From: Comamonadaceae bacterium M7527
GTDB taxonomy: Bacteria > Pseudomonadota > Gammaproteobacteria > Burkholderiales > Burkholderiaceae_C
Assembly: GCA_021044545.1 (NCBI GenBank)
Contig: CP087990.1
Span: 2,071,038 to 2,103,037, forward strand
DNA length: 32,000 nt
Direction: 5' to 3'
Each line of letters starts with the position of its first letter. Position 1 is the stretch's first letter. Positions 3,659 through 22,048 of the stretch are shown one piece after another. The notes under the pieces are model-generated. The model worked only from the letters and a program-made list of their open reading frames with translations, had not been told where the DNA came from and ran no database searches. Both the position numbers and the translations under genes were made by a program.

Positions 3659-3734
3659 GGCCCGGTAGCTCAGTTGGTAGAGCAGCGGATTGAAAATCCG
3701 CGTGTCGATGGTTCGATTCCGTCCCAGGCCACCA
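3659..3734 (+). tRNA. tRNA-Phe (anticodon GAA), 76 nt including encoded CCA
   Basis: Cloverleaf folded by hand: acceptor GGCCCGG/CCAGGCC (one C-A mismatch at 5:68), D arm GCTC-AGTTGGTA-GAGC, anticodon arm GCGGA-TTGAAAA-TCCGC, variable loop GTGTC, T arm GATGG-TTCGATT-CCGTC, then ACCA. Very similar to E. coli tRNA-Phe. Confidence 0.93.
3690..3734 (+). repeat. attL: 45-bp core repeat (anticodon loop to CCA of tRNA-Phe)
   Basis: The exact 45-mer ttgaaaatccgcgtgtcgatggttcgattccgtcccaggccacca recurs at 12610..12654 and 21528..21572. Identity stops exactly at the base 5' of ttgaaaa. Confidence 0.9.
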
Positions 3735-3740
3735 AATACT

Positions 3741-3775
3741 CACCGTAGTCTTGCAAAAGGCTACGGTGTTTTTGT
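3741..3775 (+). terminator. Island-borne rho-independent terminator directly after the reconstituted tRNA-Phe
   Basis: Stem caccgtagtc / ggctacggtg (8 Watson-Crick pairs, one G-U, one more pair), loop ttgcaaaa, followed by ttttt. Confidence 0.7.
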
Positions 3776-3812
3776 TTGTGCATCTCATTCTGCTAGTGCT
3801 GTGCAGTAGACG

Positions 3813-5021
3813 ATGCACAAGCTAGCCAACACTCACCATTGCACACCAACCACCACCATTCGCTTGCGTGACGGTGAGCTAGTCATTTACAAACGCAGCC
3901 GCAGCTTGCAGTACCAATGTCGCTACAAGCTAAGCGACGGCACTTGGACAAGAGCTAGCACTGGCAAAGCAGCTCTGGAGCACGCCATTGCTCGCGCATG
4001 TGATATCTACGATGAATCACGCTATCGACAGCGTCTTGGTTTAGCACACCGTGCACACTCTGTTGCACAGATTGCAGCTGTTTGCTGTGCTGAGCTACGG
4101 CAGCAGATAGATGCAAAAGGCAAGAAGACTGCGCTCAACGACTACTTGAGCATCATCGAGCGTTACTTTGTGCCTTACTTTGGCGAACGCTTGCTTGAAT
4201 CATTGACGCACACAGACATACGTGAGTTTGAGCTGTGGCGCGATAGGCCGCTGTCTAGAGCTCCAAAGACAAGCACGCTCAACAATTTCACAAGTGCTTG
4301 GAGCAGATTGACTGCAGTAGCTGTAGAGCGAGGCTACATCAGTGAGCGAGTACCACTGCCAAAGCCCACAAGCAAGGGCATGAAGGGCACTACACGAGCA
4401 GCATTCAGCGGCGACGAGATGACTGCACTGCTAGCGTTTATGGAGCAGTGGTGCAAGCAAGGTGTCAAAGCTGTTCAGCGTGAAATTCGCCCTTTGCTGC
4501 GCGACTATGTAGAGCTGCTGCTGTTTACTGGCATGAGGCACGGCACAGAGGCGATGAACATACGTTGGCGCGACATAGAGTGGCACACAAAGGATGGTGT
4601 GCGCTACTTGCGCATACACGTGAGTGGCAAAACTGGCAGCAGATGGTTGATTGCCAAACACGCAGCCGTCCATGCGCTGCAACGGCTGCACGCTAGACAA
4701 AGGGATGTTTGTGAGATGTCGTTTGAAACCCTGTTTGCAGCGCGAGTGCAACAACTGCTGTTCAGATACAGCGATGGACATCAGCCACACAGCTTGGTTG
4801 GCACGTTTCGCAAGCTGATGCGTGACAGTGGCATGCTCAAGAACACACAAGGGCAGAGTCGCACGCTGTACTCAATACGCCATACCTACGCCACGCTTGC
4901 ACTGTTGGAGGGTAGTGCAGACATACACACACTCAGCAAGCAGCTTGGCAACAGTGCAGCGATGATTGAGAGGCACTACAGCAAGCTCACAGCGACTATG
5001 GCAGCTGAGAAGTTGGCTTGA
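3813..5021 (+). CDS. Tyrosine recombinase / integrase, 402 aa (allele 1)
   Basis: Catalytic signature: Arg in LFTGMRHGTE, H-x-x-R in SIRHTYATLAL, Tyr in MIERHYSKL. Position is immediately next to the tRNA att site. Confidence 0.9.
   Translation: MHKLANTHHCTPTTTIRLRDGELVIYKRSRSLQYQCRYKLSDGTWTRASTGKAALEHAIARACDIYDESRYRQRLGLAHRAHSVAQIAAVCCAELRQQIDAKGKKTALNDYLSIIERYFVPYFGERLLESLTHTDIREFELWRDRPLSRAPKTSTLNNFTSAWSRLTAVAVERGYISERVPLPKPTSKGMKGTTRAAFSGDEMTALLAFMEQWCKQGVKAVQREIRPLLRDYVELLLFTGMRHGTEAMNIRWRDIEWHTKDGVRYLRIHVSGKTGSRWLIAKHAAVHALQRLHARQRDVCEMSFETLFAARVQQLLFRYSDGHQPHSLVGTFRKLMRDSGMLKNTQGQSRTLYSIRHTYATLALLEGSADIHTLSKQLGNSAAMIERHYSKLTATMAAEKLA
4717..4731 (+). promoter_or_regulatory. Motif site M5 (degenerate): tgtcgtttgaaaccc, inside int
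   Basis: 13/15 match to M1. Confidence 0.3.
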
Positions 5022-5024
5022 AGC

Positions 5025-5040
5025 TGTCGTTTAAAACCAC
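5025..5040 (+). promoter_or_regulatory. Motif site M1: tgtcgtttaaaaccac (TGTCGTTTNAAACSAC family)
   Basis: The 17-mer ctgtcgtttaaaaccac is identical at 5024..5040 and 7409..7425. Lies between the stop codons of int and the wHTH gene. Confidence 0.6.
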
Positions 5041-5044
5041 AACT

Positions 5045-5362
5045 CTAAGACGATCCTTCAAGCTGCTTCAAGTACTGGCGCACTTGGATAACACCGCGTT
5101 TGCTCAGACAGTAGTACTTCGCACGCTTGTCATGTCCATGTTGACGCTCTATGAGCTCAAGGCGCTCCAAGCGTTCCACGCTTCGCTTGAGTGTTGGCAA
5201 GGATGATTGGCACATCACATTTAAAGACTTGAGCATGAGCGCAGACGGATGAACGCGAAACAGTTCAAGCAGAACTGTTAACTCGTCACGTCTACTGACT
5301 GCCAAAACGCTTCGTTCAAACGATTGCGCTGACAAAACTCTTGCAGCTGTCTCAAAAAACAT
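5045..5362 (-). CDS. Small winged-helix (MarR/ArsR-like) DNA-binding protein, 105 aa
   Basis: LPTLKRSVERLERLELIERQHGHDKRAKYYCLSKRG looks like a recognition helix plus wing. Convergent with int and divergent from the micropeptide/Wzz-like operon across an AT-rich spacer. Confidence 0.6.
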   Translation of the reverse strand: MFFETAARVLSAQSFERSVLAVSRRDELTVLLELFRVHPSALMLKSLNVMCQSSLPTLKRSVERLERLELIERQHGHDKRAKYYCLSKRGVIQVRQYLKQLEGSS

Positions 5363-5542
5363 GCTGCGATGATGCAGTCATTTCATGGTCAAAGTAAAAA
5401 CTAAATGCAAAAACAGTATTTCAATAAAAAACAAAACGTTAAAAGATTTTTATGCTGATACATCACTGTTTTCGGCGCTAAATATTGCTAGACGCTATGT
5501 TTACGAGCTTACGCTAGGCGCTGTTTTTAGAACGACTTAGCA

Positions 5543-5656
5543 ATGAAAAAAATCAAATTTACCTTTGGAGCAAAGCTCGCTCTTGTGTCTGCTGTTGTTG
5601 GTTTTGGTGCCTCAGTGTTCTTTCTAATAAAAGAGATCACTAGAGGTATGGCATGA
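5543..5656 (+). CDS. 37-aa single-pass membrane micropeptide (MKKIKFTFGAKLALVSAVVGFGASVFFLIKEITRGMA), below the ORF-track size cut-off
   Basis: Translated by hand. Basic N-terminus, roughly 20-residue hydrophobic helix, short polar tail. Its TGA overlaps the ATG of the 514-aa gene (ATGA at 5653..5656). No clear SD, but the upstream region is AT-rich. Confidence 0.5.
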   Translation: MKKIKFTFGAKLALVSAVVGFGASVFFLIKEITRGMA

Positions 5657-7197
5657 ACGAGCAGCGATTTGAGTCTTCAGACGAAATTGATCTAGGTAGG
5701 TTCTTTACTAACCTTTGGAGTAAACGGCTAGTCGTTGTTGTGTTTGTGGTTCTTGGCTTTGCTGTTGGTGGTGTGCAAGGACTCTTTTCGCAAGCAAGCT
5801 CATTCACCAACACGGTTGCTACTGTGCATGTCAAGCTGAACTTCAAAGGTGCAGAGCTTGGCGAGTATCCAAACGGCTCCAAGTACGCACCAACAGATGT
5901 GATTGCGAGCAAAGTGCTCTCAAGGGTGTATCGAGCAAACAGCCTGGATGACTACGACATTGAGTTGGAGGAGTTTGTATCTGCAGTCAACGCTTATCCG
6001 TGGATACCTAACCAAGCTGCAATGGACGCTAAGTACGCGGATCTTTTTAGTGAAAAAAAGCTAAGCGCACTTGATCGTCAAAAATTGGATGAGCAGTATC
6101 AACAAGAAACACGAAACAGCAATGGCAGATTTTTGATGCTGCAGTGGAGTGGAGACTCAGCTGCAAAAGTGTCCAAAGCGGTTGCACAGAAAGTGTTGGC
6201 AGATATTCCTAAGCAGTGGGCTTCTGTGAGTATTCAAGAGTACGGCGTGTTGGATCTTGAGGTTGTAGTGCCAAGCAAGTTGGATCAGTATCTACTTGAT
6301 ACTGCTGAGTACATCGTCGTTGGTGACTACCTACGCGACTTTGCGAGACAATTAAAAGTGGCTGCACTTGCGTTACAGCAAGATGCTGTCGTAGCAGTTT
6401 TAAAAGACGAACAAACTCAAAGCACAGTTGGTGATGTTGGCAAGCTCATACTGAACTTAGAAAACTTTCACTTGAGTACGCTGCAGCGAACGTTCCTCAT
6501 TGCGCCGCCACGATCTAACGCTGAGGCGGCAAGTTTGTACTTGAGCAGTCGACAACGAGAGTTAGAAGAAAAAATTGCAGAAGCCGAGCGCAAGTCTGAC
6601 GTGATCAATCGCGTCTACCGCGAGTACACGGACAGTGCTGAGACGAAGTCGGCGAGTACTCAAAATGCTGCAGACAAAAATGGCAATTTATCGCCTCAAA
6701 TTGGCGACGACTTCTTGACAAAACTTATGCGTATTGGCGACGAACTATCTGATGCGAAGTACAAGCAAGACTTGCTGAAGGAGCGCAAAGAGTTGTCTTT
6801 TGAAGCCGCTGAGCTTGCAACTGAAAAGCAGCGTATTGAAGCTATTGTTGATGCATTGAGCCAGCCGCGCAGCGTGCAAGTTATCAGTAATCGTGAGGCA
6901 CTAGACAAGAGCGTTAGCTACGTGGTGTCTGAGCTCTCAAACTATGCACAGACATTGGACAGAATCAATCTTATGGCACGTGCTGCAAAGCTAGGGAAAG
7001 TTGGCTCGTTGTACGAAGTCATCAGAGCGCCACAAGTGAGCAGTAGCAGCGTTGATGCGCTAAAAGCTGCGGTGAAGAATGCGTTGTTTGGTTTGCTTGG
7101 TGGTTTGTTTCTTGGAATATTCGTAGCGTTTATTCGCGTTGTGTTGCAAGAGGCACGCTCGCCAAAGTCGTCATCAAACCATGTCGTTGCTGTGTAG
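5653..7197 (+). CDS. Wzz / polysaccharide co-polymerase (PCP)-like two-TM protein with a long coiled-coil periplasmic domain, 514 aa
   Basis: N-terminus SSDEIDLGRFFTNLWSKRLVVVVFVVLGFAVGG matches the classic Wzz N-terminal motif plus TM1. C-terminal APQVSSSS...ALFGLLGGLFLGIFVAFIRVVL is a Pro/Ser segment plus Gly-rich TM2. The region between them is rich in E/K/Q heptad-like sequence. AGAGG lies 6 nt before the ATG. Confidence 0.7.
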   Translation: MNEQRFESSDEIDLGRFFTNLWSKRLVVVVFVVLGFAVGGVQGLFSQASSFTNTVATVHVKLNFKGAELGEYPNGSKYAPTDVIASKVLSRVYRANSLDDYDIELEEFVSAVNAYPWIPNQAAMDAKYADLFSEKKLSALDRQKLDEQYQQETRNSNGRFLMLQWSGDSAAKVSKAVAQKVLADIPKQWASVSIQEYGVLDLEVVVPSKLDQYLLDTAEYIVVGDYLRDFARQLKVAALALQQDAVVAVLKDEQTQSTVGDVGKLILNLENFHLSTLQRTFLIAPPRSNAEAASLYLSSRQRELEEKIAEAERKSDVINRVYREYTDSAETKSASTQNAADKNGNLSPQIGDDFLTKLMRIGDELSDAKYKQDLLKERKELSFEAAELATEKQRIEAIVDALSQPRSVQVISNREALDKSVSYVVSELSNYAQTLDRINLMARAAKLGKVGSLYEVIRAPQVSSSSVDALKAAVKNALFGLLGGLFLGIFVAFIRVVLQEARSPKSSSNHVVAV

Positions 7198-7214
7198 CGT
7201 GCCAAAGTCCAAAT

Positions 7215-7248
7215 AAAAAGCCACTAGTGTTGAGCTAGTGGCTTTTTT
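7215..7248. terminator. Bidirectional rho-independent terminator between the convergent Wzz-like and AAA+ genes
   Basis: aaaaagccactag - tgttgag - ctagtggcttttt: a 13-bp perfect stem with A-run and T-run flanks. Confidence 0.8.
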
Positions 7249-7263
7249 GTTGTCTGACTAGGA

Positions 7264-7971
7264 CTACTTGCTAGCAGCTTGTTTGATGCTGTTGAGTGCT
7301 GCTCTCGCAGCTGCATTGCCGCGCTGCACTTTTAGCATCAAACGCTGCAAGCTGAACATCACATTCCTAAACGAGCCATTGTTGCCACTGATGGCAGCTA
7401 ACAGTTGACTGTCGTTTAAAACCACTTCTGCATCGCTTGCCATGCGTCGAGCGATTGGCAAAAACTCAGCATCTGCTGCTGCGTTCATCTCTATCAACAC
7501 GCATCTATCCTTCAAACCCTTGTCTAACGCTGCGATGTTGTTGGTGGTGAGGATGAACACAGCACGCTTGTTGTTGAGCACTGTTTTCATGCTGCCTTGT
7601 GCGAGCTTGCTCAAGTTATCCACCTCATCAAAAATCAAGTAGTGCAAACCACTCGCATTCAAAGATTGCACGTTCATCATCTTTTTCACAGACTCCATAA
7701 TCGTCGTGTTTGTATGCCCTTGCTGACAGCCAAAAAACTCAGCCTCCATTGCCAACGTGTCTTGTGTCTTGCCAAATTCGATAGCAGAAGGTAGCAAGCG
7801 TGCAAGCGTTGTCTTACCACTGCCAAATGTGCCATACAGCAAAATGCCACTCTTGCCTTCGTATGGAAAAGGTAAGCTGCCACTGACAATGTCTTCAATC
7901 AGTTCGCGTGATTCGTCGTTTCCAAAGACAATTTCGTCGATGGTGGTAGGGGTATATTCAAATTTGTTCAT
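7264..7971 (-). CDS. Clamp-loader (RFC small subunit / T4 gp44 / RarA)-like AAA+ ATPase, 235 aa, lacking most of a collar domain
   Basis: YTPTTIDEIVFGNDESRELIEDIV, then Walker A LLYGTFGSGKTTLARLL, Walker B YLIFDEVDNLSKLAQ, sensor-1 FILTTNN, and KDRCVLIEM in the position of the RFC SRC arginine-finger motif. Collinear by eye with T4 gp44. Confidence 0.75.
   Translation of the reverse strand: MNKFEYTPTTIDEIVFGNDESRELIEDIVSGSLPFPYEGKSGILLYGTFGSGKTTLARLLPSAIEFGKTQDTLAMEAEFFGCQQGHTNTTIMESVKKMMNVQSLNASGLHYLIFDEVDNLSKLAQGSMKTVLNNKRAVFILTTNNIAALDKGLKDRCVLIEMNAAADAEFLPIARRMASDAEVVLNDSQLLAAISGNNGSFRNVMFSLQRLMLKVQRGNAAARAALNSIKQAASK
7410..7425 (+). promoter_or_regulatory. Motif site M2: tgtcgtttaaaaccac, inside the AAA+ gene
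   Basis: Exact 17-nt match with M1. Confidence 0.6.
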
Positions 7972-8009
7972 GTTTGTCTTTCGTTTGTTGATTTGTTGGT
8001 TGGTTATGT

Positions 8010-8735
8010 TTAAGCTGCTAGCTTGAAAGCTTCAGCGTTTTCGCTGTACATCGACAGCAGTGCAGCGTTCAGTGCAGTCGCTGAGCGAACGATTGACTTG
8101 ATTGCAAAGCTGCCATCTGCTTGCTGCTCTGCAATCAGCACACACTCTTCGCCAACATAGTTGCTGTCGCTCATTTCACTCAGCTGTTTAGAGCTAACGC
8201 TTCCAAGTATTGGCATGCTTGAGATATGTTCTTGCATCATTTCTGCTTTGATTTTTGGACTGATGTACGTGGCACTCTTTGACAAGCGAACTTCTTGTAT
8301 GCCACCACGCTGTTCAATCCAATCTGCCAAAGCACTTGGCAATACACCTTCCTTCTGTGCACTTCGCAGCACAAGCGAGTACGTGCTAACACGTCGTCTG
8401 TCTACATCGCCAAATACTGCTTTAACGATACGTGTCATCAGTGGACTTTCACGTTTAACGACTAGCTTGCGTTCCTTTAAAAACGCTTGCAGTTCATTGG
8501 CACGCTGCTTCGCAGCAGACACCTCCAAAGGAGCTCCATAAGACAAGCAGTCAGCAAGTACGCTATACAGCTGTTGGTTGCTTGTGCGAAAAGCGTTGTT
8601 TTGCCATTGCGTGCGTTTGTTCTCCATTGCTTGCAGTGAAGCTGCAGCTGTCATGTCAAATGCTGCCTCATTGGTAGCTGTTGCTGAAGTGTGTGTGTCG
8701 TTTGAAACGACAGCTGATTTGGTGGTAACTTGCAT
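8010..8735 (-). CDS. Unknown 241-aa protein, first gene of the operon with the AAA+ ATPase
   Basis: Long ORF with protein-like composition. ATG at 8735 is preceded by GGAG with a 6-nt spacing (the ORF-track start at 8747 is a TTG). There is a 38-nt gap to the ATPase gene. I recognise no family. Confidence 0.65.
   Translation of the reverse strand: MQVTTKSAVVSNDTHTSATATNEAAFDMTAAASLQAMENKRTQWQNNAFRTSNQQLYSVLADCLSYGAPLEVSAAKQRANELQAFLKERKLVVKRESPLMTRIVKAVFGDVDRRRVSTYSLVLRSAQKEGVLPSALADWIEQRGGIQEVRLSKSATYISPKIKAEMMQEHISSMPILGSVSSKQLSEMSDSNYVGEECVLIAEQQADGSFAIKSIVRSATALNAALLSMYSENAEAFKLAA
8696..8712. promoter_or_regulatory. Motif site M4: tgtcgtttgaaacgaca, a perfect 8+1+8 palindrome near the 5' end of the 241-aa gene
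   Basis: Read directly from the sequence. Sits 24-40 nt inside the ORF from the ATG at 8735. Confidence 0.6.
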
Positions 8736-8836
8736 AAAAATCTCCAAAATATCGTGTAAAAAATTATCGTTTGCATTATTGCTTGCGATGTAATAATTAT
8801 ATTAAAATCAACGTTTTACAGCCATAAACGTCTTAC

Positions 8837-9613
8837 GTGCTAGTATTAGATGTTAAGAATATGAGAAGATATTTTTCAGCACCAACTCCACGCTTTGGTA
8901 AGCAAAGCAGTCGTTTGTCGATTGGTAATCAGCAGCGCAGCCCTTACTATTGGTGGTGGCAGTACTTGCGTCGTAACGCTGACTACATAGCGTGCTGTGA
9001 GCGTGGTGGCAAAGGTAAGCTTGCAAAGCTCTACGCTGACTTTGGTGACGTTCGAAACGACAACTTCCACGAGTGGTGGACAAGTAACGATAGGGGAGTA
9101 ACGCTATTCGCTGAGCAACATTTGGCAGTGCGTTTTGGCGAGTTGGCAAGCGCTGAGCAGTGGCAAGCTAGTTGGCACGCTGATGATGTGCTTGTGGTGG
9201 CTGTACCTTTGGAGATGAGCAAGCGTTCTATCAAGTCTGCGTTCGGCAAGCTATTAGATAAACGACACACAGACGTTAAACGTGGACGTCCATCTATTGC
9301 AAAGCTGAAAGAACACAGTACTGCTCTATATGCGCTAGAGCGCAACTACACCATTAATGGTTTGCAAAACACATTGGCTGTTTATGACTTGTGGATAGAC
9401 AATCAAGCACGCAGCAAAGCAGATAAATTGGCACTGTGGCAAATAGCTGCAGAGCTGAAGCTAAACAGAGCTGCAATCAAAGACGCGACGAGTGACGATA
9501 GTGGCGATAGATTGAGTGGACGTAACACGCTTGGGGCTACTGTGCACCGCTATGTCACGCAAGCCAAGCGCATCATTGGCAATACAGCAAAGGGCAAGTT
9601 CCCCTTGTCGTAG
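8837..9613 (+). CDS. 258-aa protein with W-rich xxLRRNxxY motif (transcriptional-regulator-like domain, DUF6499/FseA-like); true start may be the ATG at 8861
   Basis: RSPYYWWWQYLRRNADYIACCE resembles the W-x-EFLRRNP-x-Y signature of the N-terminal domain of FseA-type ICE activators (from memory). Divergent from the 241-aa/AAA+ operon across an AT-rich spacer. The 8837 start is a GTG. Confidence 0.55.
   Translation: MLVLDVKNMRRYFSAPTPRFGKQSSRLSIGNQQRSPYYWWWQYLRRNADYIACCERGGKGKLAKLYADFGDVRNDNFHEWWTSNDRGVTLFAEQHLAVRFGELASAEQWQASWHADDVLVVAVPLEMSKRSIKSAFGKLLDKRHTDVKRGRPSIAKLKEHSTALYALERNYTINGLQNTLAVYDLWIDNQARSKADKLALWQIAAELKLNRAAIKDATSDDSGDRLSGRNTLGATVHRYVTQAKRIIGNTAKGKFPLS
9046..9062. promoter_or_regulatory. 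Motif site M7: tgacgttcgaaacgaca (15/17 match to M4), inside the 258-aa gene
   Basis: Read directly from the sequence. Confidence 0.4.
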
Positions 9614-9616
9614 CTG

Positions 9617-9632
9617 TGTCGTTTTAAACCAC
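9617..9632 (+). promoter_or_regulatory. Motif site M3: tgtcgttttaaaccac, between the 258-aa gene stop and the short recombinase stop
   Basis: 15/16 identical to M1/M2. Lies 3 nt from the recombinase gene's 3' end. Confidence 0.55.
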
Positions 9633-9634
9633 GC

Positions 9635-10207
9635 TCAAACCAACTCGACAGCTCTGCGCTTCACATCATCATTGACAGTGATGTAACGCTGTGTGGTTGC
9701 AATGCTCTTGTGACCAGCAAGTGAAGCAAGCACAAACACGCTGACACCTTGACTTGCGAGTGACGTTAAAAACGTCTTGCGTCCACTGTGACTGCTTGCA
9801 CCTTTGATGCCAGCAGCTTTGAACAACCAGTAAAAGTGCTGTGACAGCACGTTGGCGCTGAATCCCTTGCGTGCACCACTGTAAGTTGTGAACAGTGCTT
9901 GCTCCTCCTCGTACCACTTGCGCGAGTTGATGTAGCACTGCAGTTCCTCTTGCAGTCGTGTGCTCACATACACAGTGCGTGCATGGTTGTGTTTGACGCG
10001 GTGAGCACCTAGATATATTTCTGCTCGAACCGTGCCGTTCGCATCGCGTACATCACACAGCTTCAAGTCTGCCACCTCGCTCACACGCAAACCACTCATC
10101 ACCATCATCAACAGCATCGCTCTATCGCGTGCTGCAAACTTGCGTGTGCTGATGTAGTCGAGTGTGTGCGCAAGTTCCGCGCTGGTTAGTGATTTAGCTG
10201 CAGCCAT
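9635..10207 (-). CDS. Short (190 aa) catalytic-domain-only tyrosine recombinase, FimB/FimE-sized
   Basis: Arg in MSGLRVSEVADL, H-x-x-R in SSHSGRKTFLT, H..Y in LAGHKSIATTQRYITV. GAGGAA SD lies 6 nt before the ATG. Confidence 0.8.
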   Translation of the reverse strand: MAAAKSLTSAELAHTLDYISTRKFAARDRAMLLMMVMSGLRVSEVADLKLCDVRDANGTVRAEIYLGAHRVKHNHARTVYVSTRLQEELQCYINSRKWYEEEQALFTTYSGARKGFSANVLSQHFYWLFKAAGIKGASSHSGRKTFLTSLASQGVSVFVLASLAGHKSIATTQRYITVNDDVKRRAVELV

Positions 10208-10617
10208 TTGTGTTCCTCAAAGATTTTCAGTGTTGTTAGTGTGTTTTCATTGCCAGTGTTTGAGCAACCAAGTCCGTTCAATTTGGCGGTGCTTTGATGA
10301 GTTGTAGGTTTTCAACGCACTAGCACTTGGTTCACGAACTTTGTGTGTTCTCTTTGGCTGTGTATTTAGCTGAACGCTGCTGCGCTCTGCAAGCGTTTTG
10401 ATATATGTGCTGCTGCTCAGCTCTTCATGCACCTCTTTTATGCGCTTAGACGAAGGATTTGACGTGTTTGCGTGTTGTGCTCGCTGTGCTCACAAATTCA
10501 TCTGCAGCTCAAATATTTCTGCTGCGCAAAAAGTTGCGGTGAAGTACTTACAGAAGTGAGGTGGTGATTTGCACTCGGTGCTGTTTGTGAAGTGCTTACA
10601 CTTCATTGGCAAGTAAG

Positions 10618-10635
10618 AGCAAGCAGCTGCTTGCT
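10618..10635. repeat. 18-bp perfect palindrome AGCAAGCAGCTGCTTGCT in the low-coding region
   Basis: Read directly from the sequence. Overlaps a second palindrome, TGCTAGCA. Preceded by the hairpin gaagtg-ctta-cacttc (10589..10604) and the direct repeat gaagtacttaca / gaagtgcttaca (10541 and 10589). Confidence 0.7.
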
Positions 10636-11001
10636 AGCAGTTCGCTCGTCGCTCTCTGCTGTGCTCTTCTGTCTTTTGACATGACTGTTTTGGAAATGTT
10701 TCGAGCAAACGACGGCTATGTCGCACAGTGTGCGAACAGTAGCTGTCGTTGTAGTCTGTTCCGTATAAAGTCCGTCGCAGTACAAGCATGAGTGAGTTTG
10801 ACGGAAGACGTATGTATTAAAACTTCCAAACTGCTTCAGCATTGGTTTGCTTTGCAGATACTCAGCGGCACTCTCGTTCTACACAGCCTTCATGCCAACT
10901 GTGTAGTGATTGCAAAGTCATTAGCCGTCATATTTCCCTTTGCGTTTTTAGCCTTTGATAGCGCAGTGCTTTATCTGCGTGGTGTTGCCTTGGTGTTTGC
11001 C

Positions 11002-11355
11002 TTAGTGTTTGTTCTGTCTGTGCTGCCTGAACAATCGCTTGTTAGCTCGTGTGCAGATGTTGAGCACTTGGTAGGCACGCTTGTCGCTCAGTCGCGCTCG
11101 TTTGCGTTTGTTCTGGATGCACTTGAGGTAGTCGCCGAGTACCGTAGCTTGCTTACTGTCTATAAGCTCAAGCTGCGCATGCTCTGCGTGAATGCCAAGT
11201 GTTCGCTTCGCAGCTGCTTGTGCTTTAAGGAGTAGTGCGTCTGTCGTTGCAAACGTCGCTGCAGCTAAGCCTCTTTGCTTTAGCCACGCATCAGTTGCTT
11301 CAGTGTCACGCAATGCACTTACTCGAATTTGATATTGCTGTTCTTGTTTGTTCAT
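11002..11355 (-). CDS. Possible ribbon-helix-helix-like small DNA-binding protein, 117 aa from the second ATG
   Basis: YQIRVSALRDTEATDAWLKQRGLAAATFATTDALLLKA has a strand-helix-helix pattern, followed by a basic C-terminus. Composition is far more protein-like than the antisense 147-aa ORF. No clear SD. Confidence 0.4.
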   Translation of the reverse strand: MNKQEQQYQIRVSALRDTEATDAWLKQRGLAAATFATTDALLLKAQAAAKRTLGIHAEHAQLELIDSKQATVLGDYLKCIQNKRKRARLSDKRAYQVLNICTRANKRLFRQHRQNKH

Positions 11356-11420
11356 GCAAGTATTTAGCATCTGCCAAACAAAACCTTGGCGAAACTGAAG
11401 CGTTGTTTGGCAATAAGTGC

Positions 11421-11440
11421 TGCAGTGCAGTGCAGTGCAT
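11421..11440. repeat. Pentanucleotide tract (TGCAG)x3 plus TGCAT, flanked by the inverted repeat aagtgc / gcactt (11415..11451)
   Basis: Read directly from the sequence. Lies in the divergent spacer between the RHH-like gene and the 146-aa gene. Confidence 0.7.
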
Positions 11441-11536
11441 GTGTGGCACTTTGACGCTCATCGCCTTTTTCGGTTGCTCAAGTTGTGGTGGTGACAACAC
11501 ACTAGCTGTATTGCAACTGCATAGGAACACAGCAAC

Positions 11537-11977
11537 ATGACAGCAACACTTGGCACTCTAAAGCTCACAGCAGCACAAAAGCCCTCGCACGTAACTCCAA
11601 TACAGCAGCGACGCAACAAACTGGCGAAGCGTTTGTTCGAGCAAGCTGAGTTGGCGAAAGCCCAACAACTCGGCTCAACATACAAACCAATCAAGTTCAA
11701 GACTGTTACGGACGCAGATGGTATGCGAAAGCAAGTGGAGCAGTACAAGACAGTGAAGGCGTGGTGGTTTACGGCAGACAACGGTAAGTTGGCACTGAGC
11801 GTGCGCTACGGTACAAAAGTGCTTGAGCTAGCAAAAGGCAGGTGGAGCGTTGAGGTAGCAAGCACACAAGAGCTTGTGCCAACGTTAGAGCTGATTAAAG
11901 CTGCGGTGCTAAACGGTGAGCTAGATGCTGCAATCGATGTTGCATCAGACAAATTGAAGCTTGGCTTTAAGCGTTGA
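11537..11977 (+). CDS. Hypothetical 146-aa protein
   Basis: Clean ORF with AGGAA 9 nt upstream of the ATG and balanced composition. No family recognised. Confidence 0.6.
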   Translation: MTATLGTLKLTAAQKPSHVTPIQQRRNKLAKRLFEQAELAKAQQLGSTYKPIKFKTVTDADGMRKQVEQYKTVKAWWFTADNGKLALSVRYGTKVLELAKGRWSVEVASTQELVPTLELIKAAVLNGELDAAIDVASDKLKLGFKR

Positions 11978-12038
11978 TGCAAGCGATGCAATCAAAGTCG
12001 CTCTGTAGATTGTCTTGTGCTGCGTTGATAAATACTCC

Positions 12039-12365
12039 ATGCAGTACAAGGAATTCAAAACGACATCACAGAGCGCAGCGCAATCAAAGCCAGCTTCGTC
12101 TAGCAGTGATGCTGCCAGCAACACAAAGCAAGGCAGCAAGCAGCGTGCAGCCAAGCGTGCACGCACTACTGCAAAGACACAAACGCTTGCGCAGATGCGC
12201 ATTCAGCATTTGCAAGACAAAGTCAAACACGCAAAGGCTGAGCTTGCGGCAGAGATTGCAGCGCAGCGTTTGGCGCTATCCAACAAGCAGCGTGAGCAAA
12301 AGCGTAGAGCACTACAGAGGCAGAGTCTGCAAGCTGTACAAGCTGCGAAGCGTGAGCAAGACTAA
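12039..12365 (+). CDS. Basic Lys/Gln/Ala-rich coiled-coil protein, 108 aa from the ATG at 12039
   Basis: QRAAKRARTTAKTQTLAQMRIQHLQDKVKHAKAELAAEIAAQRLALSNKQREQKRRALQRQ. It is the last gene before the att junction. Unit 2 has a 2-bp deletion that removes only the last 4 codons. Confidence 0.5.
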   Translation: MQYKEFKTTSQSAAQSKPASSSSDAASNTKQGSKQRAAKRARTTAKTQTLAQMRIQHLQDKVKHAKAELAAEIAAQRLALSNKQREQKRRALQRQSLQAVQAAKREQD

Positions 12366-12609
12366 GTGTCTTTCAAAACGTCACTTGCACAACCGTAGCA
12401 AAACCGCTGATAGCTGCACAGTTACGCTCAAGCAGCTTGTGCAGCTTAGACACGCTAGTGCAGTGCTGAGAGGCATAGTGCAAATGGTGCGAGCGCAGCA
12501 GCAGTGTGCTAAATGTTTTGTAGAAAAAACGTTGCAGAATTTCGCACACCAATCTGTTCCAAAGCAAAATCCAGTTGAAAAATTTAACTCTTTCGCACTC
12601 TTGTCAGCG

Positions 12610-12654
12610 TTGAAAATCCGCGTGTCGATGGTTCGATTCCGTCCCAGGCCACCA
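12610..12654 (+). repeat. Internal att (attP-like junction): 45-bp partial tRNA-Phe 3' copy between the two units
   Basis: Exact copy of 3690..3734. It lacks the 5' 31 nt of the tRNA, so it is not a functional tRNA gene. Confidence 0.9.
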
Positions 12655-12660
12655 AATATT

Positions 12661-12695
12661 CACCGTAGTCTTGCAAAAGACTACGGTGTTTTTGT
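12661..12695 (+). terminator. Copy of the island-borne terminator; the G-U pair of unit 1 is an A-U pair here
   Basis: caccgtagtc ttgcaaaa gactacggtg ttttt. Confidence 0.65.
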
Positions 12696-12732
12696 TTGTG
12701 CATCTCATTCTGCTAGTGCTGCGCAGTAGACG

Positions 12733-13941
12733 ATGCACAAGCTAGCCAACACTCACCACTGCACACTAACCACCACCATTCGCTTGCGTGATGGTGAGCT
12801 TGTCATCTACAAACGCAGCCGCAGCTTGCAGTACCAATGTCGCTACAAGCTAAGCGACGGAACTTGGACAAGAGCTAGCACTGGCAAAGCAGCTCTAGAA
12901 CATGCCATTGCTCGCGCATGTGATATCTACGATGAATCACGCTATCGACAGCGTCTTGGTTTAGCACACCGTGCACACTCTGTTGCACAGATTGCAGCTG
13001 TTTGCTGTGCTGAGCTGCGGCAGCAGATAGACGCAAAAGGCAAGAAGACTGCGCTCAACGATTACTTGAGCATCATCGAGCGCTACTTTGTGCCGTACTT
13101 TGGCGAACGCTTGTTTGAATCATTGACGCACACAGACATACGCGAGTTTGAGCTGTGGCGAGATAGACGGCTGTCTAGGGCACCAAAGACAAGCACGCTC
13201 AACACTTTCACAAGTGCTTGGAGCAGATTGACTGCAACAGCTGTAGAGCGTGGCTACATCAGTGAGCGAGTACCACTGCCAAAACTCACAAGCAAGGGCA
13301 TGAAGGGCACTACACGAGCAGCATTCAGTGGCGACGAGATGACGGCACTGCTGGCGTTTATGGAGCAGTGGTGCACACAAGGTGTCAAAGCCGTAGAGCG
13401 TGAAATTCGCCCTTTGCTGCGTGACTACGTGGAGCTGCTGCTTTTTACTGGCATGAGGCACGGCACAGAGGCGATGAACATACGTTGGCGCGACATAGAG
13501 TGGCACACAAAGGATGGTGTGCGTTACTTGCGCATACACGTGAGTGGCAAAACTGGCAGCAGATGGTTGATTGCCAAACACGCAGCCGTCCATGCGCTGC
13601 AACGGCTGCACGCTAGACAAAGGGATGTTTGTGAGATGTCGTTTGAAACCCTGTTTGCAGCGCGAGTGCAACAACTGCTGTTCAGATACAGCGATGGACA
13701 TCAGCCACACAGCTTGGTTGGCACGTTTCGCAAGCTGATGCGTGACAGTGGCATGCTCAAGAACACACAAGGGCAGAGTCGCACGCTGTACTCAATACGC
13801 CATACCTACGCCACGCTTGCACTGTTGGAGGGTAGTGCAGACATACACACACTCAGCAAGCAGCTTGGCAACAGTGCAGCGATGATTGAGAGGCACTACA
13901 GCAAGCTCACAGCGACTATGGCAGCTGAGAAGTTGGCTTGA
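12733..13941 (+). CDS. Tyrosine recombinase / integrase, 402 aa (allele 2; 8 amino-acid differences from allele 1, all in the first 221 residues)
   Basis: Same catalytic motifs as allele 1. Differences read from the ORF track: P11L, L128F, P145R, N157T, V168T, P184L, K214T, Q221E. Confidence 0.9.
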   Translation: MHKLANTHHCTLTTTIRLRDGELVIYKRSRSLQYQCRYKLSDGTWTRASTGKAALEHAIARACDIYDESRYRQRLGLAHRAHSVAQIAAVCCAELRQQIDAKGKKTALNDYLSIIERYFVPYFGERLFESLTHTDIREFELWRDRRLSRAPKTSTLNTFTSAWSRLTATAVERGYISERVPLPKLTSKGMKGTTRAAFSGDEMTALLAFMEQWCTQGVKAVEREIRPLLRDYVELLLFTGMRHGTEAMNIRWRDIEWHTKDGVRYLRIHVSGKTGSRWLIAKHAAVHALQRLHARQRDVCEMSFETLFAARVQQLLFRYSDGHQPHSLVGTFRKLMRDSGMLKNTQGQSRTLYSIRHTYATLALLEGSADIHTLSKQLGNSAAMIERHYSKLTATMAAEKLA

Positions 13942-14462: not shown

Positions 14463-14576
14463 ATGAAAAAAATCAAATTTACCTTTGGAGCAAAGCTCGC
14501 TCTTGTGTCTGCTGTTGTTGGTTTTGGTGCCTCAGTGTTCTTTCTAATAAAAGAGATCACTAGAGGTATGGCATGA
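14463..14576 (+). CDS. 37-aa membrane micropeptide (copy 2)
   Basis: Identical sequence to 5543..5656. Confidence 0.5.
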   Translation: MKKIKFTFGAKLALVSAVVGFGASVFFLIKEITRGMA

Positions 14577-16117
14577 ACGAGCAGCGATTTGAGTCTTCAG
14601 ACGAAATTGATCTAGGTAGGTTCTTTACTAACCTTTGGAGTAAACGGCTAGTCGTTGTTGTGTTTGTGGTTCTTGGCTTTGCTGTTGGTGGTGTGCAAGG
14701 ACTCTTTTCGCAAGCAAGCTCATTCACCAACACGGTTGCTACTGTGCATGTCAAGCTGAACTTCAAAGGTGCAGAGCTTGGCGAGTATCCAAACGGCTCC
14801 AAGTACGCACCAACAGATGTGATTGCGAGCAAAGTGCTCTCAAGGGTGTATCGAGCAAACAGCCTGGATGACTACGACATTGAGTTGGAGGAGTTTGTAT
14901 CTGCAGTCAACGCTTATCCGTGGATACCTAACCAAGCTGCAATGGACGCTAAGTACGCGGATCTTTTTAGTGAAAAAAAGCTAAGCGCACTTGATCGTCA
15001 AAAATTGGATGAGCAGTATCAACAAGAAACACGAAACAGCAATGGCAGATTTTTGATGCTGCAGTGGAGTGGAGACTCAGCTGCAAAAGTGTCCAAAGCG
15101 GTTGCACAGAAAGTGTTGGCAGATATTCCTAAGCAGTGGGCTTCTGTGAGTATTCAAGAGTACGGCGTGTTGGATCTTGAGGTTGTAGTGCCAAGCAAGT
15201 TGGATCAGTATCTACTTGATACTGCTGAGTACATCGTCGTTGGTGACTACCTACGCGACTTTGCGAGACAATTAAAAGTGGCTGCACTTGCGTTACAGCA
15301 AGATGCTGTCGTAGCAGTTTTAAAAGACGAACAAACTCAAAGCACAGTTGGTGATGTTGGCAAGCTCATACTGAACTTAGAAAACTTTCACTTGAGTACG
15401 CTGCAGCGAACGTTCCTCATTGCGCCGCCACGATCTAACGCTGAGGCGGCAAGTTTGTACTTGAGCAGTCGACAACGAGAGTTAGAAGAAAAAATTGCAG
15501 AAGCCGAGCGCAAGTCTGACGTGATCAATCGCGTCTACCGCGAGTACACGGACAGTGCTGAGACGAAGTCGGCGAGTACTCAAAATGCTGCAGACAAAAA
15601 TGGCAATTTATCGCCTCAAATTGGCGACGACTTCTTGACAAAACTTATGCGTATTGGCGACGAACTATCTGATGCGAAGTACAAGCAAGACTTGCTGAAG
15701 GAGCGCAAAGAGTTGTCTTTTGAAGCCGCTGAGCTTGCAACTGAAAAGCAGCGTATTGAAGCTATTGTTGATGCATTGAGCCAGCCGCGCAGCGTGCAAG
15801 TTATCAGTAATCGTGAGGCACTAGACAAGAGCGTTAGCTACGTGGTGTCTGAGCTCTCAAACTATGCACAGACATTGGACAGAATCAATCTTATGGCACG
15901 TGCTGCAAAGCTAGGGAAAGTTGGCTCGTTGTACGAAGTCATCAGAGCGCCACAAGTGAGCAGTAGCAGCGTTGATGCGCTAAAAGCTGCGGTGAAGAAT
16001 GCGTTGTTTGGTTTGCTTGGTGGTTTGTTTCTTGGAATATTCGTAGCGTTTATTCGCGTTGTGTTGCAAGAGGCACGCTCGCCAAAGTCGTCATCAAACC
16101 ATGTCGTTGCTGTGTAG
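14573..16117 (+). CDS. Wzz/PCP-like two-TM protein (copy 2)
   Basis: Identical translation to 5653..7197. Confidence 0.7.
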   Translation: MNEQRFESSDEIDLGRFFTNLWSKRLVVVVFVVLGFAVGGVQGLFSQASSFTNTVATVHVKLNFKGAELGEYPNGSKYAPTDVIASKVLSRVYRANSLDDYDIELEEFVSAVNAYPWIPNQAAMDAKYADLFSEKKLSALDRQKLDEQYQQETRNSNGRFLMLQWSGDSAAKVSKAVAQKVLADIPKQWASVSIQEYGVLDLEVVVPSKLDQYLLDTAEYIVVGDYLRDFARQLKVAALALQQDAVVAVLKDEQTQSTVGDVGKLILNLENFHLSTLQRTFLIAPPRSNAEAASLYLSSRQRELEEKIAEAERKSDVINRVYREYTDSAETKSASTQNAADKNGNLSPQIGDDFLTKLMRIGDELSDAKYKQDLLKERKELSFEAAELATEKQRIEAIVDALSQPRSVQVISNREALDKSVSYVVSELSNYAQTLDRINLMARAAKLGKVGSLYEVIRAPQVSSSSVDALKAAVKNALFGLLGGLFLGIFVAFIRVVLQEARSPKSSSNHVVAV

Positions 16118-18554: not shown

Positions 18555-19127
18555 TCAAACCAACTCGACAGCTCTGCGCTTCACATCATCATTGACAGTG
18601 ATGTAACGCTGTGTGGTTGCAATGCTCTTGTGACCAGCAAGTGAAGCAAGCACAAACACGCTGACACCTTGACTTGCGAGTGACGTTAAAAACGTCTTGC
18701 GTCCACTGTGACTGCTTGCACCTTTGATGCCAGCAGCTTTGAACAACCAGTAAAAGTGCTGTGACAGCACGTTGGCGCTGAATCCCTTGCGTGCACCACT
18801 GTAAGTTGTGAACAGTGCTTGCTCCTCCTCGTACCACTTGCGCGAGTTGATGTAGCACTGCAGTTCCTCTTGCAGTCGTGTGCTCACATACACAGTGCGT
18901 GCATGGTTGTGTTTGACGCGGTGAGCACCTAGATATATTTCTGCTCGAACCGTGCCGTTCGCATCGCGTACATCACACAGCTTCAAGTCTGCCACCTCGC
19001 TCACACGCAAACCACTCATCACCATCATCAACAGCATCGCTCTATCGCGTGCTGCAAACTTGCGTGTGCTGATGTAGTCGAGTGTGTGCGCAAGTTCCGC
19101 GCTGGTTAGTGATTTAGCTGCAGCCAT
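18555..19127 (-). CDS. Short tyrosine recombinase (copy 2)
   Basis: Identical translation to 9635..10207. Confidence 0.8.
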   Translation of the reverse strand: MAAAKSLTSAELAHTLDYISTRKFAARDRAMLLMMVMSGLRVSEVADLKLCDVRDANGTVRAEIYLGAHRVKHNHARTVYVSTRLQEELQCYINSRKWYEEEQALFTTYSGARKGFSANVLSQHFYWLFKAAGIKGASSHSGRKTFLTSLASQGVSVFVLASLAGHKSIATTQRYITVNDDVKRRAVELV

Positions 19128-20456: not shown

Positions 20457-20897
20457 ATGACAGCAACACTTGGCACTCTAAAGCTCACAGCAGCACAAAA
20501 GCCCTCGCACGTAACTCCAATACAGCAGCGACGCAACAAACTGGCGAAGCGTTTGTTCGAGCAAGCTGAGTTGGCGAAAGCCCAACAACTCGGCTCAACA
20601 TACAAACCAATCAAGTTCAAGACTGTTACGGACGCAGATGGTATGCGAAAGCAAGTGGAGCAGTACAAGACAGTGAAGGCGTGGTGGTTTACGGCAGACA
20701 ACGGTAAGTTGGCACTGAGCGTGCGCTACGGTACAAAAGTGCTTGAGCTAGCAAAAGGCAGGTGGAGCGTTGAGGTAGCAAGCACACAAGAGCTTGTGCC
20801 AACGTTAGAGCTGATTAAAGCTGCGGTGCTAAACGGTGAGCTAGATGCTGCAATCGATGTTGCATCAGACAAATTGAAGCTTGGCTTTAAGCGTTGA
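20457..20897 (+). CDS. Hypothetical 146-aa protein (copy 2)
   Basis: Identical translation to 11537..11977. Confidence 0.6.
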   Translation: MTATLGTLKLTAAQKPSHVTPIQQRRNKLAKRLFEQAELAKAQQLGSTYKPIKFKTVTDADGMRKQVEQYKTVKAWWFTADNGKLALSVRYGTKVLELAKGRWSVEVASTQELVPTLELIKAAVLNGELDAAIDVASDKLKLGFKR

Positions 20898-20958
20898 TGC
20901 AAGCGATGCAATCAAAGTCGCTCTGTAGATTGTCTTGTGCTGCGTTGATAAATACTCC

Positions 20959-21273
20959 ATGCAGTACAAGGAATTCAAAACGACATCACAGAGCGCAGCG
21001 CAATCAAAGCCAGCTTCGTCTAGCAGTGATGCTGCCAGCAACACAAAGCAAGGCAGCAAGCAGCGTGCAGCCAAGCGTGCACGCACTACTGCAAAGACAC
21101 AAACGCTTGCGCAGATGCGCATTCAGCATTTGCAAGACAAAGTCAAACACGCAAAGGCTGAGCTTGCGGCAGAGATTGCAGCGCAGCGTTTGGCGCTATC
21201 CAACAAGCAGCGTGAGCAAAAGCGTAGAGCACTACAGAGGCAGAGTCTGCAAGCTGTACAAGCTGCGAAGTGA
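20959..21273 (+). CDS. Basic coiled-coil protein (copy 2), 4 residues shorter because of the 2-bp deletion
   Basis: Ends ...QAVQAAK, versus ...QAVQAAKREQD in unit 1. Confidence 0.5.
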   Translation: MQYKEFKTTSQSAAQSKPASSSSDAASNTKQGSKQRAAKRARTTAKTQTLAQMRIQHLQDKVKHAKAELAAEIAAQRLALSNKQREQKRRALQRQSLQAVQAAK

Positions 21274-21527
21274 GCAAGACTAAGTGTCTTTCAAAACGTC
21301 ACTTGCACAACCGTAGCAAAACCGCTGATAGCTGCACAGTTACGCTCAAGCAGCTTGTGCAGCTTAGACACGCTAGTGCAGTGCTGAGAGGCATAGTGCA
21401 AATGGTGCGAGCGCAGCAGCAGTGTGCTAAATGTTTTGTAGAAAAAACGTTGCAGAATTTCGCACACCAATCTGTTCCAAAGCAAAATCCAGTTGAAAAA
21501 TTTAACTCTTTCGCACTCTTGTCAGCG

Positions 21528-21572
21528 TTGAAAATCCGCGTGTCGATGGTTCGATTCCGTCCCAGGCCACCA
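21528..21572 (+). repeat. attR: 45-bp partial tRNA-Phe 3' copy, followed by native flanking DNA
   Basis: Exact copy of 3690..3734. The sequence after CCA (agttcaaaagcccc...) differs from the island sequence (aatactcaccg...). Confidence 0.9.
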
Positions 21573-21577
21573 AGTTC

Positions 21578-21612
21578 AAAAGCCCCAATCAGCGATGGTT
21601 GGGGCTTTTTCG
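21578..21612 (+). terminator. Probable original tRNA-Phe terminator, now displaced about 17.8 kb from the gene
   Basis: aaaagccccaa - tcagcgatgg - ttggggctttt: an 11-bp perfect stem followed by a T-run. Confidence 0.75.
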
Positions 21613-21640
21613 TTAGCGCCTTGTTCGTTTTGCAAAGTAC

Positions 21641-22048
21641 TCACGGTATGTGCAAGTTGTTGAGTGCTTGCACTAGCCGATGGCTGGCAAGTTCGGCCTG
21701 GTTTAGTAATTGATTCCAGTCGTCAGGTGGGTGGCCGGTCTCGAGCATCTTTCGAAAGACGCGGTAAGCGTCATCGCTGCTCTCGTAGGCGCGCTTGGTG
21801 TCGTCATCATTGACCCAGGCGTAGACGATCACCTTAGCGCCCGCGTGGTACCGAAAAAACAGGCGGTACTGCTGAAAGAACTTGGCGCGGAACCAGTGCT
21901 TTCGATCTGCGCCCAGTGTTGCGCCCTAACGGTATTCCGCCCGGGAGGGGTCTTGTGGGATCACATCAAACGCCAGCTTGGCAATGGCCGCCAGTCGTTT
22001 GGTGGCGTTTTTCTTGACGTACCCGGCGAAGGCCTTATTGCAAATGAA
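21641..22048 (-). pseudogene. YhaV-family toxin remnant: N-terminal ~45 codons missing, plus an in-frame TAG
   Basis: Hand translation gives ...NKAFAGYVKKNATKRLAAIAKLAFDVIPQDPSRAEYR*GATLGADRKHWFRAKFFQQYRLFFRYHAGAKVIVYAWVNDDDTKRAYESSDDAYRVFRKMLETGHPPDDW. This is collinear with E. coli YhaV residues ~45-150. The frame begins right at the pldA stop, and no prlF-like antitoxin gene is present. Confidence 0.7.

Follow-up and report, generated by a model that had tools for sequence, protein, structure and literature searches.

A micropeptide and polysaccharide co-polymerase-like gene pair on a duplicated tRNA-Phe island of Comamonadaceae bacterium M7527: a possible module for resetting surface-glycan chain length

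Organisation of the peptide-PCP locus

The marine Comamonadaceae bacterium M7527 carries an integrative island of ~8.9 kb at a tRNA-Phe gene, and two tandem copies of it lie in the 32,000-nt stretch of contig CP087990.1 (positions 2,071,038 to 2,103,037) that was analysed here and is referred to as the window. This study concerns a pair of genes on the island, both on the forward strand. One encodes a 37-amino acid (aa) micropeptide with a single transmembrane (TM) segment (5543..5656), assigned from the list of open reading frames (ORFs), the raw sequence and its conservation, and the other encodes a kinase-less inner-membrane protein of 514 aa resembling polysaccharide co-polymerases (PCPs) (5653..7197), assigned from profiles, fold and topology.

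In the micropeptide, MKKIKFTFGAKLALVSAVVGFGASVFFLIKEITRGMA, a basic N-terminus is followed by a single hydrophobic stretch at residues 11-29, with a mean Kyte-Doolittle value of 2.1, and the predicted topology is N-in. A first-pass annotation of this DNA had pointed out the 37-codon ORF with its basic N-terminus and single hydrophobic helix, and these features are borne out by the ORF list and the Kyte-Doolittle values. The TGA stop codon of the peptide overlaps the ATG of the 514-aa ORF (ATGA, 4 nt), an arrangement that had also been noted and is seen in the raw sequence, and the AGAGG Shine-Dalgarno sequence of the PCP gene sits within the peptide ORF. The overlap and the internal Shine-Dalgarno sequence make translational coupling of the two genes likely. 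Together with the conservation and dN/dS values described below, they uphold the earlier description of the micropeptide ORF as a translationally coupled gene.

Upstream of the peptide gene is an AT-rich intergenic control region of 180 nt (5363..5542, 36% G+C), beyond which lies a divergent gene for a 105-aa MarR-like winged-helix (wHTH) regulator on the reverse strand (5045..5362; HTH_27 E 4e-4 and MarR_2 E 0.015, both below the gathering score). The promoter-distal part of the control region is variable, and the ~55 nt leading up to the peptide gene are conserved in the related locus L010. No match to a sigma-70 consensus was found in 5363-5542, and an Rfam scan of the leader gave nothing. 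Downstream, the operon ends at a hairpin terminator (7215..7247; 14-bp stem, dG -25.5 kcal/mol, z -4.6) that is common to a convergent AAA ATPase gene. The hairpin is preceded by an A-run and followed by a T-run, and is therefore able to terminate both ways.

The 514-aa protein as a polysaccharide co-polymerase

The N-terminus of the 514-aa protein, SSDEIDLGRFFTNLWSKR, is followed by TM1 (~residues 26-44), long helices at 290-340, 353-403 and 414-447, and a Gly-rich TM2, LFGLLGGLFLGIF, at ~480-498. The two TM helices enclose ~415 periplasmic residues, and the cytoplasmic ends are short. With ~15 residues after TM2 and no P-loop, the protein has no bacterial tyrosine kinase (BY-kinase) domain, in agreement with the first-pass annotation. 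The Gly-rich segment GLLGGLFLG is conserved, with G484 invariant in alignment A1 and G480, G484 and G488 in alignment A4.

A second AlphaFold2 (AF2) model, built on a 106-sequence profile alignment deeper than that of the earlier model, had a pLDDT of 89.2 and a pTM of 0.72, with TM helices at 25-48 and 466-502. In the modelled layout, TM1 leads into a four-stranded alpha/beta base (strands 54-62, 112-116, 160-167 and 454-464), from which three helices of 35-50 residues extend before the return strand and TM2. The Foldseek search that had been suggested as a check for a PCP fold returned only Wzc or WzzB at ranks 1-10 against the PDB (E 2e-5 to 3e-2, probability 0.9-1.0), and WzzE came up at ranks 14 and 16, a result that the shallower first model also gave. 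When the 106-sequence profile was compared with PDB sequences, the N-termini of Wzc, WzzE and FepE came out on top (E ~3e-3), and in a second stretch the final strand and TM2 aligned to GNVR-TM2 of Wzc. Such depth was required, as a PDB profile search with just 9 sequences gave only designed coiled coils.

The best structural matches are to Wzc of the PCP-2a class (Escherichia coli Wzc, PDB 7nib and 9r62; E 2e-5, probability 1.0). Wzc shares with the window protein the N-terminal motif and TM1, a periplasmic domain of similar size, and a final beta-strand and TM2 that align to GNVR-TM2, but it has the cytoplasmic BY-kinase domain that the window protein lacks, and identity is ~10% with TM-scores of 0.2-0.3. 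PCP-1 proteins of the Wzz type (WzzB, WzzE, FepE and pHS-2 Wzz; fold matches to WzzB 6rbg and WzzE 8p3p and 8bhw) have the same 2-TM topology and DEIDL-type N-terminal motif. However, the window protein is ~150 residues longer, and the proline-rich motif of Wzz before TM2 is cut down to a single Pro, as read from the sequence. The periplasmic domain matches Wzc better than Wzz. Wzz genes that are mobile or present as a second copy and that re-set O-antigen modality are known.

Several results limit the assignment to the PCP superfamily. The Pfam Wzz model PF02706 scored 18.3 bits (E 0.003) where 25.5 is the gathering score, and covered residues 10-54 only; TIGR01006 was likewise sub-threshold (E 0.003); Pfam GNVR gave no match to the 514-aa protein; and the Foldseek TM-scores are low. 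With scores of 0.2-0.3 the structures do not superpose rigidly as a whole but are alike in topology and in local 3Di pattern, which is read here as a shared topology with different helix geometry in the monomer model. Scans with PADLOC, PHROGs and NCBIfam gave no informative match for either gene. The protein is nevertheless well supported by predicted fold, topology and context, though not at curated thresholds, as a divergent member of the PCP superfamily. The earlier label of a Wzz/PCP-like protein can thus be kept for the PCP architecture and fold (AF2, Foldseek), but the Wzz part is weakened by the PF02706 score below gathering and by the Wzc-like periplasmic domain.

A family without a Pfam model

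An exhaustive profile search placed the protein in a family that counts 1,508 representative clusters at E ≤ 1e-3, of which 599 also pass E ≤ 1e-30. A word-indexed search had found 9 relatives only, with almost nothing more when a 73-sequence profile was used, and two relatives were found in the genome collection. Nearly all members are 500-550 aa long, so that 514 aa is a normal size: the length that had been considered unusual does exceed that of Wzz by ~150 residues, but is ordinary in the protein's own family. Pfam Wzz is the only recurrent family among members (17/73, best E 2e-6). In their sources, two members are named 'Chain length determinant protein' and 'LPS biosynthesis protein', and most are named 'hypothetical protein'. 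Without a Pfam model, the family is a large branch of the Wzz/Wzc superfamily that is so far uncharacterised.

Just after TM1, at residues 64-78, members share the motif F-x-G-A-x-x-G-x-Y-P-N-G-x-x-F, which is near-invariant across >100 of them. At ~20% identity (alignments A2 and A3), P73 is invariant and F64, Y72, N74, G75 and F78 are conserved at ≥90%. This YPNG-type motif is a candidate functional site that defines the family. The F-x-G-A-x-x-G-x-YPNG signature is not known as a feature of Wzz.

The genomic context of distant members supports a role in glycan synthesis. In L020, a MurJ/MatE-type flippase gene is followed by the PCP gene, a second PCP paralogue and, further down, rml and GT2 genes. 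In L023 it lies within a cluster of Wzx, epimerase and aminotransferase genes, and in L002 beside a glycosyltransferase (GT)/AsnB cluster that includes a 9-TM protein. Loci of the L005 type have the PCP gene directly after a CapD/WbpM-like gene (Polysacc_synt_2 E 1.6e-119), and in L019 the gene is within ~5 kb of rml and UDP-sugar genes.

The tandem genes of L020 (2461-5306) encode PCP-like proteins of 497 aa and 451 aa, both with 2 TM helices and an F-x-G...NP-x-GG/YPNG-type motif. The 451-aa gene was considered as a Wzy candidate and rejected, as its product is a second 2-TM PCP paralogue. In L022 (151-2150), the family member is immediately preceded by the C-terminal end of another PCP. Such tandem paralogues might form hetero-oligomeric co-polymerases. 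In another locus, L009 (NZ_JBHTMN010000009.1, labelled Rhodanobacter aciditrophus JCM 30774), the order and sizes of ORFs in the PCP region match those of Marinomonas mediterranea (L024, CP047694.1), which has the order dsbB-rsd-WD40-DUF423-trmB-PCP-hns-tex with the H-NS gene adjoining that of the PCP. The G+C content of L009 is ~43-48%, odd for Rhodanobacter, and the record may be mislabelled.

Conservation of the micropeptide

Dozens of ORFs of 30 aa or longer occur in the window, and the 37-codon ORF taken alone is not beyond chance. It is raised above chance because it is conserved. An upstream single-TM ORF overlapping the PCP start is kept in three lineages; the identity of their PCPs to that of the window is 52-55%. 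The first comprises the window and L010 (95% identical), with a 37-aa peptide and the ATGA overlap. The second is L007, with a 47-aa peptide on the same type of island, including a divergent wHTH gene and an AAA ATPase gene, and the third comprises L001, L011, L012 and L013, also with a 47-aa peptide. The overlap in the second and third lineages is 8 nt, ATGTCTGA or GTGTCTGA. All three have a GGTGG or AGAGG motif for the PCP gene inside the peptide ORF. Leaders are AT-rich in all three (window 5517-5542; L007 1385-1410; L001 9845-9870).

Peptide identity between lineages is 27-43%, and the hydrophobic helix is retained. Residues T7, A10, G20, F21, A23, S24 and G35 are invariant, and include a GFxAS motif; as a caveat, the PCP Shine-Dalgarno sequence falls on the conserved Gly codons of the C-terminus. 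Substitutions are biased to the third codon position. By the Nei-Gojobori method, dN/dS is 0.19 between the window and L010 (6 synonymous and 4 non-synonymous changes), 0.08 between L001 and L011, and 0.36-0.44 between L007 and the L001 type. At the level of codon comparison, these values show purifying selection on the peptide ORF, and dN/dS well below 1 with the helix kept in all lineages indicates selection on the peptide product. Intact peptide variants were called on >20 metagenome contigs. Unlike the micropeptide ORF, the adjoining 51-codon ORF (5385-5540) is missing from the list of upstream ORFs of L010. The exact 37-aa peptide had no match in the protein collection under NCBI accessions for the M7527 genome, which fits the peptide being unannotated there. 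It is probable that the micropeptide is genuine and serves the PCP as a co-translated partner in the membrane.

Small-xxx-small motifs occur in the peptide (G20-x-x-x-S24) and in TM2 of the PCP (G484-x-x-x-G488), and from these a contact between the two proteins is inferred. Mimicry of the partner's TM segments by the peptide is not claimed. In local alignments against 2,000 shuffles, p values for the peptide with TM1 of its own partner were 0.63 (window), 0.013 (L007) and 0.22 (L001), and with TM2 they were 0.63, 0.48 and 0.037, respectively, a range (0.01-0.63) that is inconsistent across lineages.

Distribution and mobility of the pair

In a neighbour-joining tree, the peptide-bearing PCPs form one clade, and its sister is the L005 type, which lies beside the CapD/WbpM-like gene and has no peptide. 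Ten resident relatives were scanned, and none has a small TM ORF of the micropeptide kind upstream. Every peptide-bearing copy examined lies in foreign, low-GC DNA: in the window the G+C content is 39% for the peptide gene and 47% for the PCP gene against 58-59% in the host, and on a chromosome of the L001 type it is 47-49% for the pair against 55-56%.

In the L001 type (L001, L011-L013), the pair stands by itself between benE and a TP_methylase gene, as an insert of just these two genes, without wHTH, integrase or ATPase genes. A gene in the wHTH position is present in L007 and L010 and absent from the L001-type loci. As the pair occurs alone in the L001 type, the pair and not the island is the unit, and the wHTH gene and terminator are local context. 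The first-pass annotation had viewed the window module as a self-contained unit flanked by these two elements; the wHTH gene and the strong bidirectional terminator are indeed present, but both belong to the island setting, and what is self-contained is the pair. The MarR-like genes that lie beside PCP relatives in L019 and L023 showed no homology to the island wHTH gene on testing.

Searches with the PCP found no relatives in plasmid and phage collections or IMG/VR viral contigs (tblastn), or among BFVD structures, and hence there is no sign of a phage- or plasmid-borne state elsewhere. The distribution, as read from sequence comparison, argues for a takeover function.

Comparison with known peptide-bearing systems

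The closest precedent for the pair, by analogy, is opvAB of Salmonella enterica (STM2209-STM2208), a low-GC, horizontally acquired bicistronic operon (PMC3350482, PMC4652898) that the first-pass annotation had not mentioned. OpvA is a 34-aa single-TM peptide and OpvB a 221-aa 2-TM protein of the Wzz superfamily, their ORFs are 1 nt apart, and the two proteins interact in a two-hybrid assay (PMC3350482, PMC4652898). OpvA alone abolishes modality, whereas OpvB alone competes poorly with WzzST; together they shorten the O-antigen to 3-8 repeat units and give resistance to phages P22, 9NA and Det7 (PMC3350482, PMC4652898).

The two systems have in common a foreign low-GC origin and a single-TM peptide of ~35 aa encoded directly upstream of a co-oriented gene for a 2-TM Wzz-superfamily protein. 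They differ in spacing (1 nt apart in opvAB, 4-8 nt overlap here) and in setting, opvAB being a fixed chromosomal islet and the window pair part of a tRNA-Phe integrative island. The TM segments of OpvA and OpvB are reported to have no GxxxG-type motifs, whereas GxxxS is found in the peptide and GxxxG in TM2 here. Control also differs, as opvAB is phase-variable via four GATC/OxyR sites. No GATC site occurs in 5363-5542, so that a Dam/OxyR switch of the opvAB type is absent, and the window has a divergent MarR-like gene instead.

Iap of phage D3 is a looser analogue. This 31-aa TM peptide hampers the resident Wzy/Wzz so that the incoming Wzy-beta takes over (PMC4815439, PMC12004945). It is likewise a small TM peptide on a mobile element, but is paired with a polymerase and not a co-polymerase, and the island has no polymerase gene. 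The first-pass annotation had stated that Iap mimics the first TM segment of Wzz; a 2025 review says the second, and sources differ on which TM is meant (PMC4815439, PMC12004945).

Proposed function and alternative explanations

By analogy, the most likely function of the pair is an OpvAB-like one, in which the chains of a Wzy-dependent surface glycan are re-set in length and interactions with phages or grazers change as a result; we give it about an even chance. The surface-remodelling or superinfection-exclusion role put forward in the first-pass annotation likewise stands by analogy. The PCP would oligomerise in the inner membrane, engage a host Wzy-type polymerase and impose its own chain length on O-antigen, capsule or exopolysaccharide. 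The peptide would pack on TM helices by its GxxxS motif and either neutralise or displace the resident co-polymerase or stabilise the incoming one. The changed cell surface would then alter phage adsorption, grazing or other interactions to the benefit of island and host.

A number of observations tell against this proposal. The window has no genes for Wzy, Wzx, a resident PCP or other glycan functions, so that no target is found there; a Wza-type outer membrane polysaccharide export (OPX) partner or a separate BY-kinase gene was also not found near the 514-aa gene in the window. Some PCP relatives have housekeeping contexts, such as trmB-PCP-hns in the Marinomonas-type loci L009/L024, and also L021. 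OpvB, at 221 aa, has no coiled coil, whereas the window protein has 514 aa and a helical periplasmic domain of Wzc size, and belongs to a Pfam-less family other than that of OpvB; OpvA and OpvB were compared by their published description. For the peptide, no Shine-Dalgarno sequence precedes the start in any of the three lineages, and its initiation may be Shine-Dalgarno-independent. Finally, one L001-type metagenome copy (L018, 4485-4628) has TAA in place of GAA at peptide codon 7, with no alternative start in L018 ahead of the TM segment. This stop could be due to a pseudogene, a sequencing error or a dispensable N-terminal extension.

Two alternatives take the micropeptide as something other than a functional partner. 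It is very improbable that the 37-codon ORF arose by chance in an AT-rich leader and that the 514-aa gene encodes a stand-alone hypothetical membrane protein. The many chance ORFs of 30 aa or longer in the window, the lack of a Shine-Dalgarno sequence before the peptide start and the absence of the peptide from the collection under NCBI accessions for the M7527 genome would agree with such an origin, but frame, TM helix and stop-start overlap are conserved despite peptide identities of 27-43%, substitutions favour the third codon position, and no counterpart of the adjacent 51-codon ORF is listed for L010. It is less improbable, but still unlikely, that the PCP is a working chain-length regulator and the ORF only a translated leader (uORF), the product of which has no function of its own. 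Coupling through the ATGA or 8-nt overlap and the PCP Shine-Dalgarno sequence inside the ORF is likely; the conserved C-terminal Gly codons coincide with the Shine-Dalgarno-like GGTGG/AGAGG; and N-terminal length varies (37 vs 47 aa), with the early stop in L018. However, conserved positions are found in the TM core (GFxAS, T7, A10) and not just at the 3' end, dN/dS is well below 1 across the core with a hydrophobic helix in all lineages, and in the analogous opvAB the peptide has its own phenotype.

As a further alternative, to which we assign a similarly small likelihood, the pair would work independently of glycan chain length, as a membrane-anchored module for phage exclusion or abortive infection. 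The PCP-like oligomer would serve as a periplasm-spanning scaffold or sensor, and the peptide as an effector or regulator that blocks DNA entry or depolarises the membrane. Basic-plus-TM small peptides of mobile elements are often toxins or exclusion factors, the two genes are carried by a small integrative island and are mobile as a self-contained low-GC unit, and some PCP relatives are found outside glycan loci. In contrast, neither protein matched a PADLOC-DB 2.0 model (the best, PbeC at E 0.037, covers the coiled coil only, and the peptide had none), no recognisable defence genes surround the pair, relatives on phages, plasmids or viral contigs were not found in the searches above, and the sole consistent signals from fold, profile and context are those of polysaccharide co-polymerases.

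The chain-length proposal can be extended to a general, recurrently evolved hijack kit of mobile elements consisting of a micropeptide and an invading co-polymerase. The peptide would disable the means by which the host sets chain length, the imported PCP would give surface glycans a new length, and the module, of a Comamonadaceae/Methylophilaceae type, would be an independent, non-enterobacterial invention of the OpvAB strategy on a so far unrecognised PCP family with its >1,500 clusters, its invariant YPNG motif and no Pfam model. This extension is tentative, and we regard it as possible but rather doubtful. A yet more radical possibility is that the PCP scaffold has been repurposed here for phage exclusion independent of glycans.

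If the analogy with opvAB holds, the pair would be a second peptide-plus-co-polymerase takeover module, in a distant host lineage outside Enterobacteria, possibly of independent origin and carried by a true integrative island. OpvAB would then no longer be an oddity of Salmonella but one case of a general strategy of mobile DNA, which would rewrite surface-glycan length and in this way alter phage receptor access. The analysis also brings to light a large family of ~520-aa PCP-like proteins that has no curated model and many members of which are encoded in polysaccharide loci. With only two genes, the conserved motifs GxxxS and GxxxG, and natural variants that either have or lack the peptide, the pair is a compact test system for small TM peptides that act on Wzy/Wzz.

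The integrative island and its tandem copies

The island-borne nature of the module, as described in the first-pass annotation, is confirmed by the tRNA-Phe gene, the integrase and the low G+C content. The tRNA-Phe (GAA) gene (3659..3734, forward strand) was identified by ARAGORN and Rfam, and its 3' 45 nt (3690-3734) form the island attachment (att) repeat, which recurs at 12610-12654 and 21528-21572. A 402-aa tyrosine integrase is encoded at 3813..5021 on the forward strand (PHROG 1 integrase E 4e-31; NCBIfam Xer-like), with a second copy at 12733-13941. The island has 48% G+C and the host flanks, with two-component, UvrD, PriA and hemE genes, have 58-59%.

The second copy of the micropeptide and PCP-like genes, which had been overlooked, lies at 14463..16117 on the forward strand (peptide 14463-14576, PCP 14573-16117) and is identical to the first (tblastn 100% identity). 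The 514-aa protein accordingly has two NCBI accessions, UFS56097.1 and UFS56107.1, both named 'hypothetical protein'. At a copy offset of 8920 nt, not a single mismatch separates the islands over 4605-12350. All 50 substitutions between them fall in the att-proximal region and the 5' part of the integrase gene (3739-4604), which suggests that two related elements integrated in tandem, or that recombination with a third variant took place, rather than an assembly artefact. The copies also differ by a 2-bp (GC) indel at 12350-12351 versus 21270: copy 1 has one ORF of 251 aa (11974-12729) that runs into the att repeat, and copy 2 has two ORFs, 20894-21283 and 21270-21713. One island copy carries a frameshift in this gene of unknown function, which has a weak match to PHROG 10773.

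Convergent to the PCP operon is the gene for a 235-aa clamp-loader/RFC-like AAA ATPase (7264-7971, reverse strand; PHROG 168 E 1.5e-23), which is ~28% identical to phage clamp loaders and is not MinD/BY-kinase-like. Next to it (span 7264-8747, reverse strand) is a gene of ~245-255 aa without a family match. The ATPase and adjoining genes may be island backbone, possibly with replication functions. A 235-aa ORF (with an AAA Pfam on record for L007) followed by another ORF occupies the same position in L007 (3166-4517) and L010 (2232-3745). The island also encodes a 190-aa tyrosine recombinase consisting of the catalytic domain only (9635-10207, reverse strand; copy at 18555-19127), which is XerA/XerC-like and matches Phage_integrase at E 1e-26.

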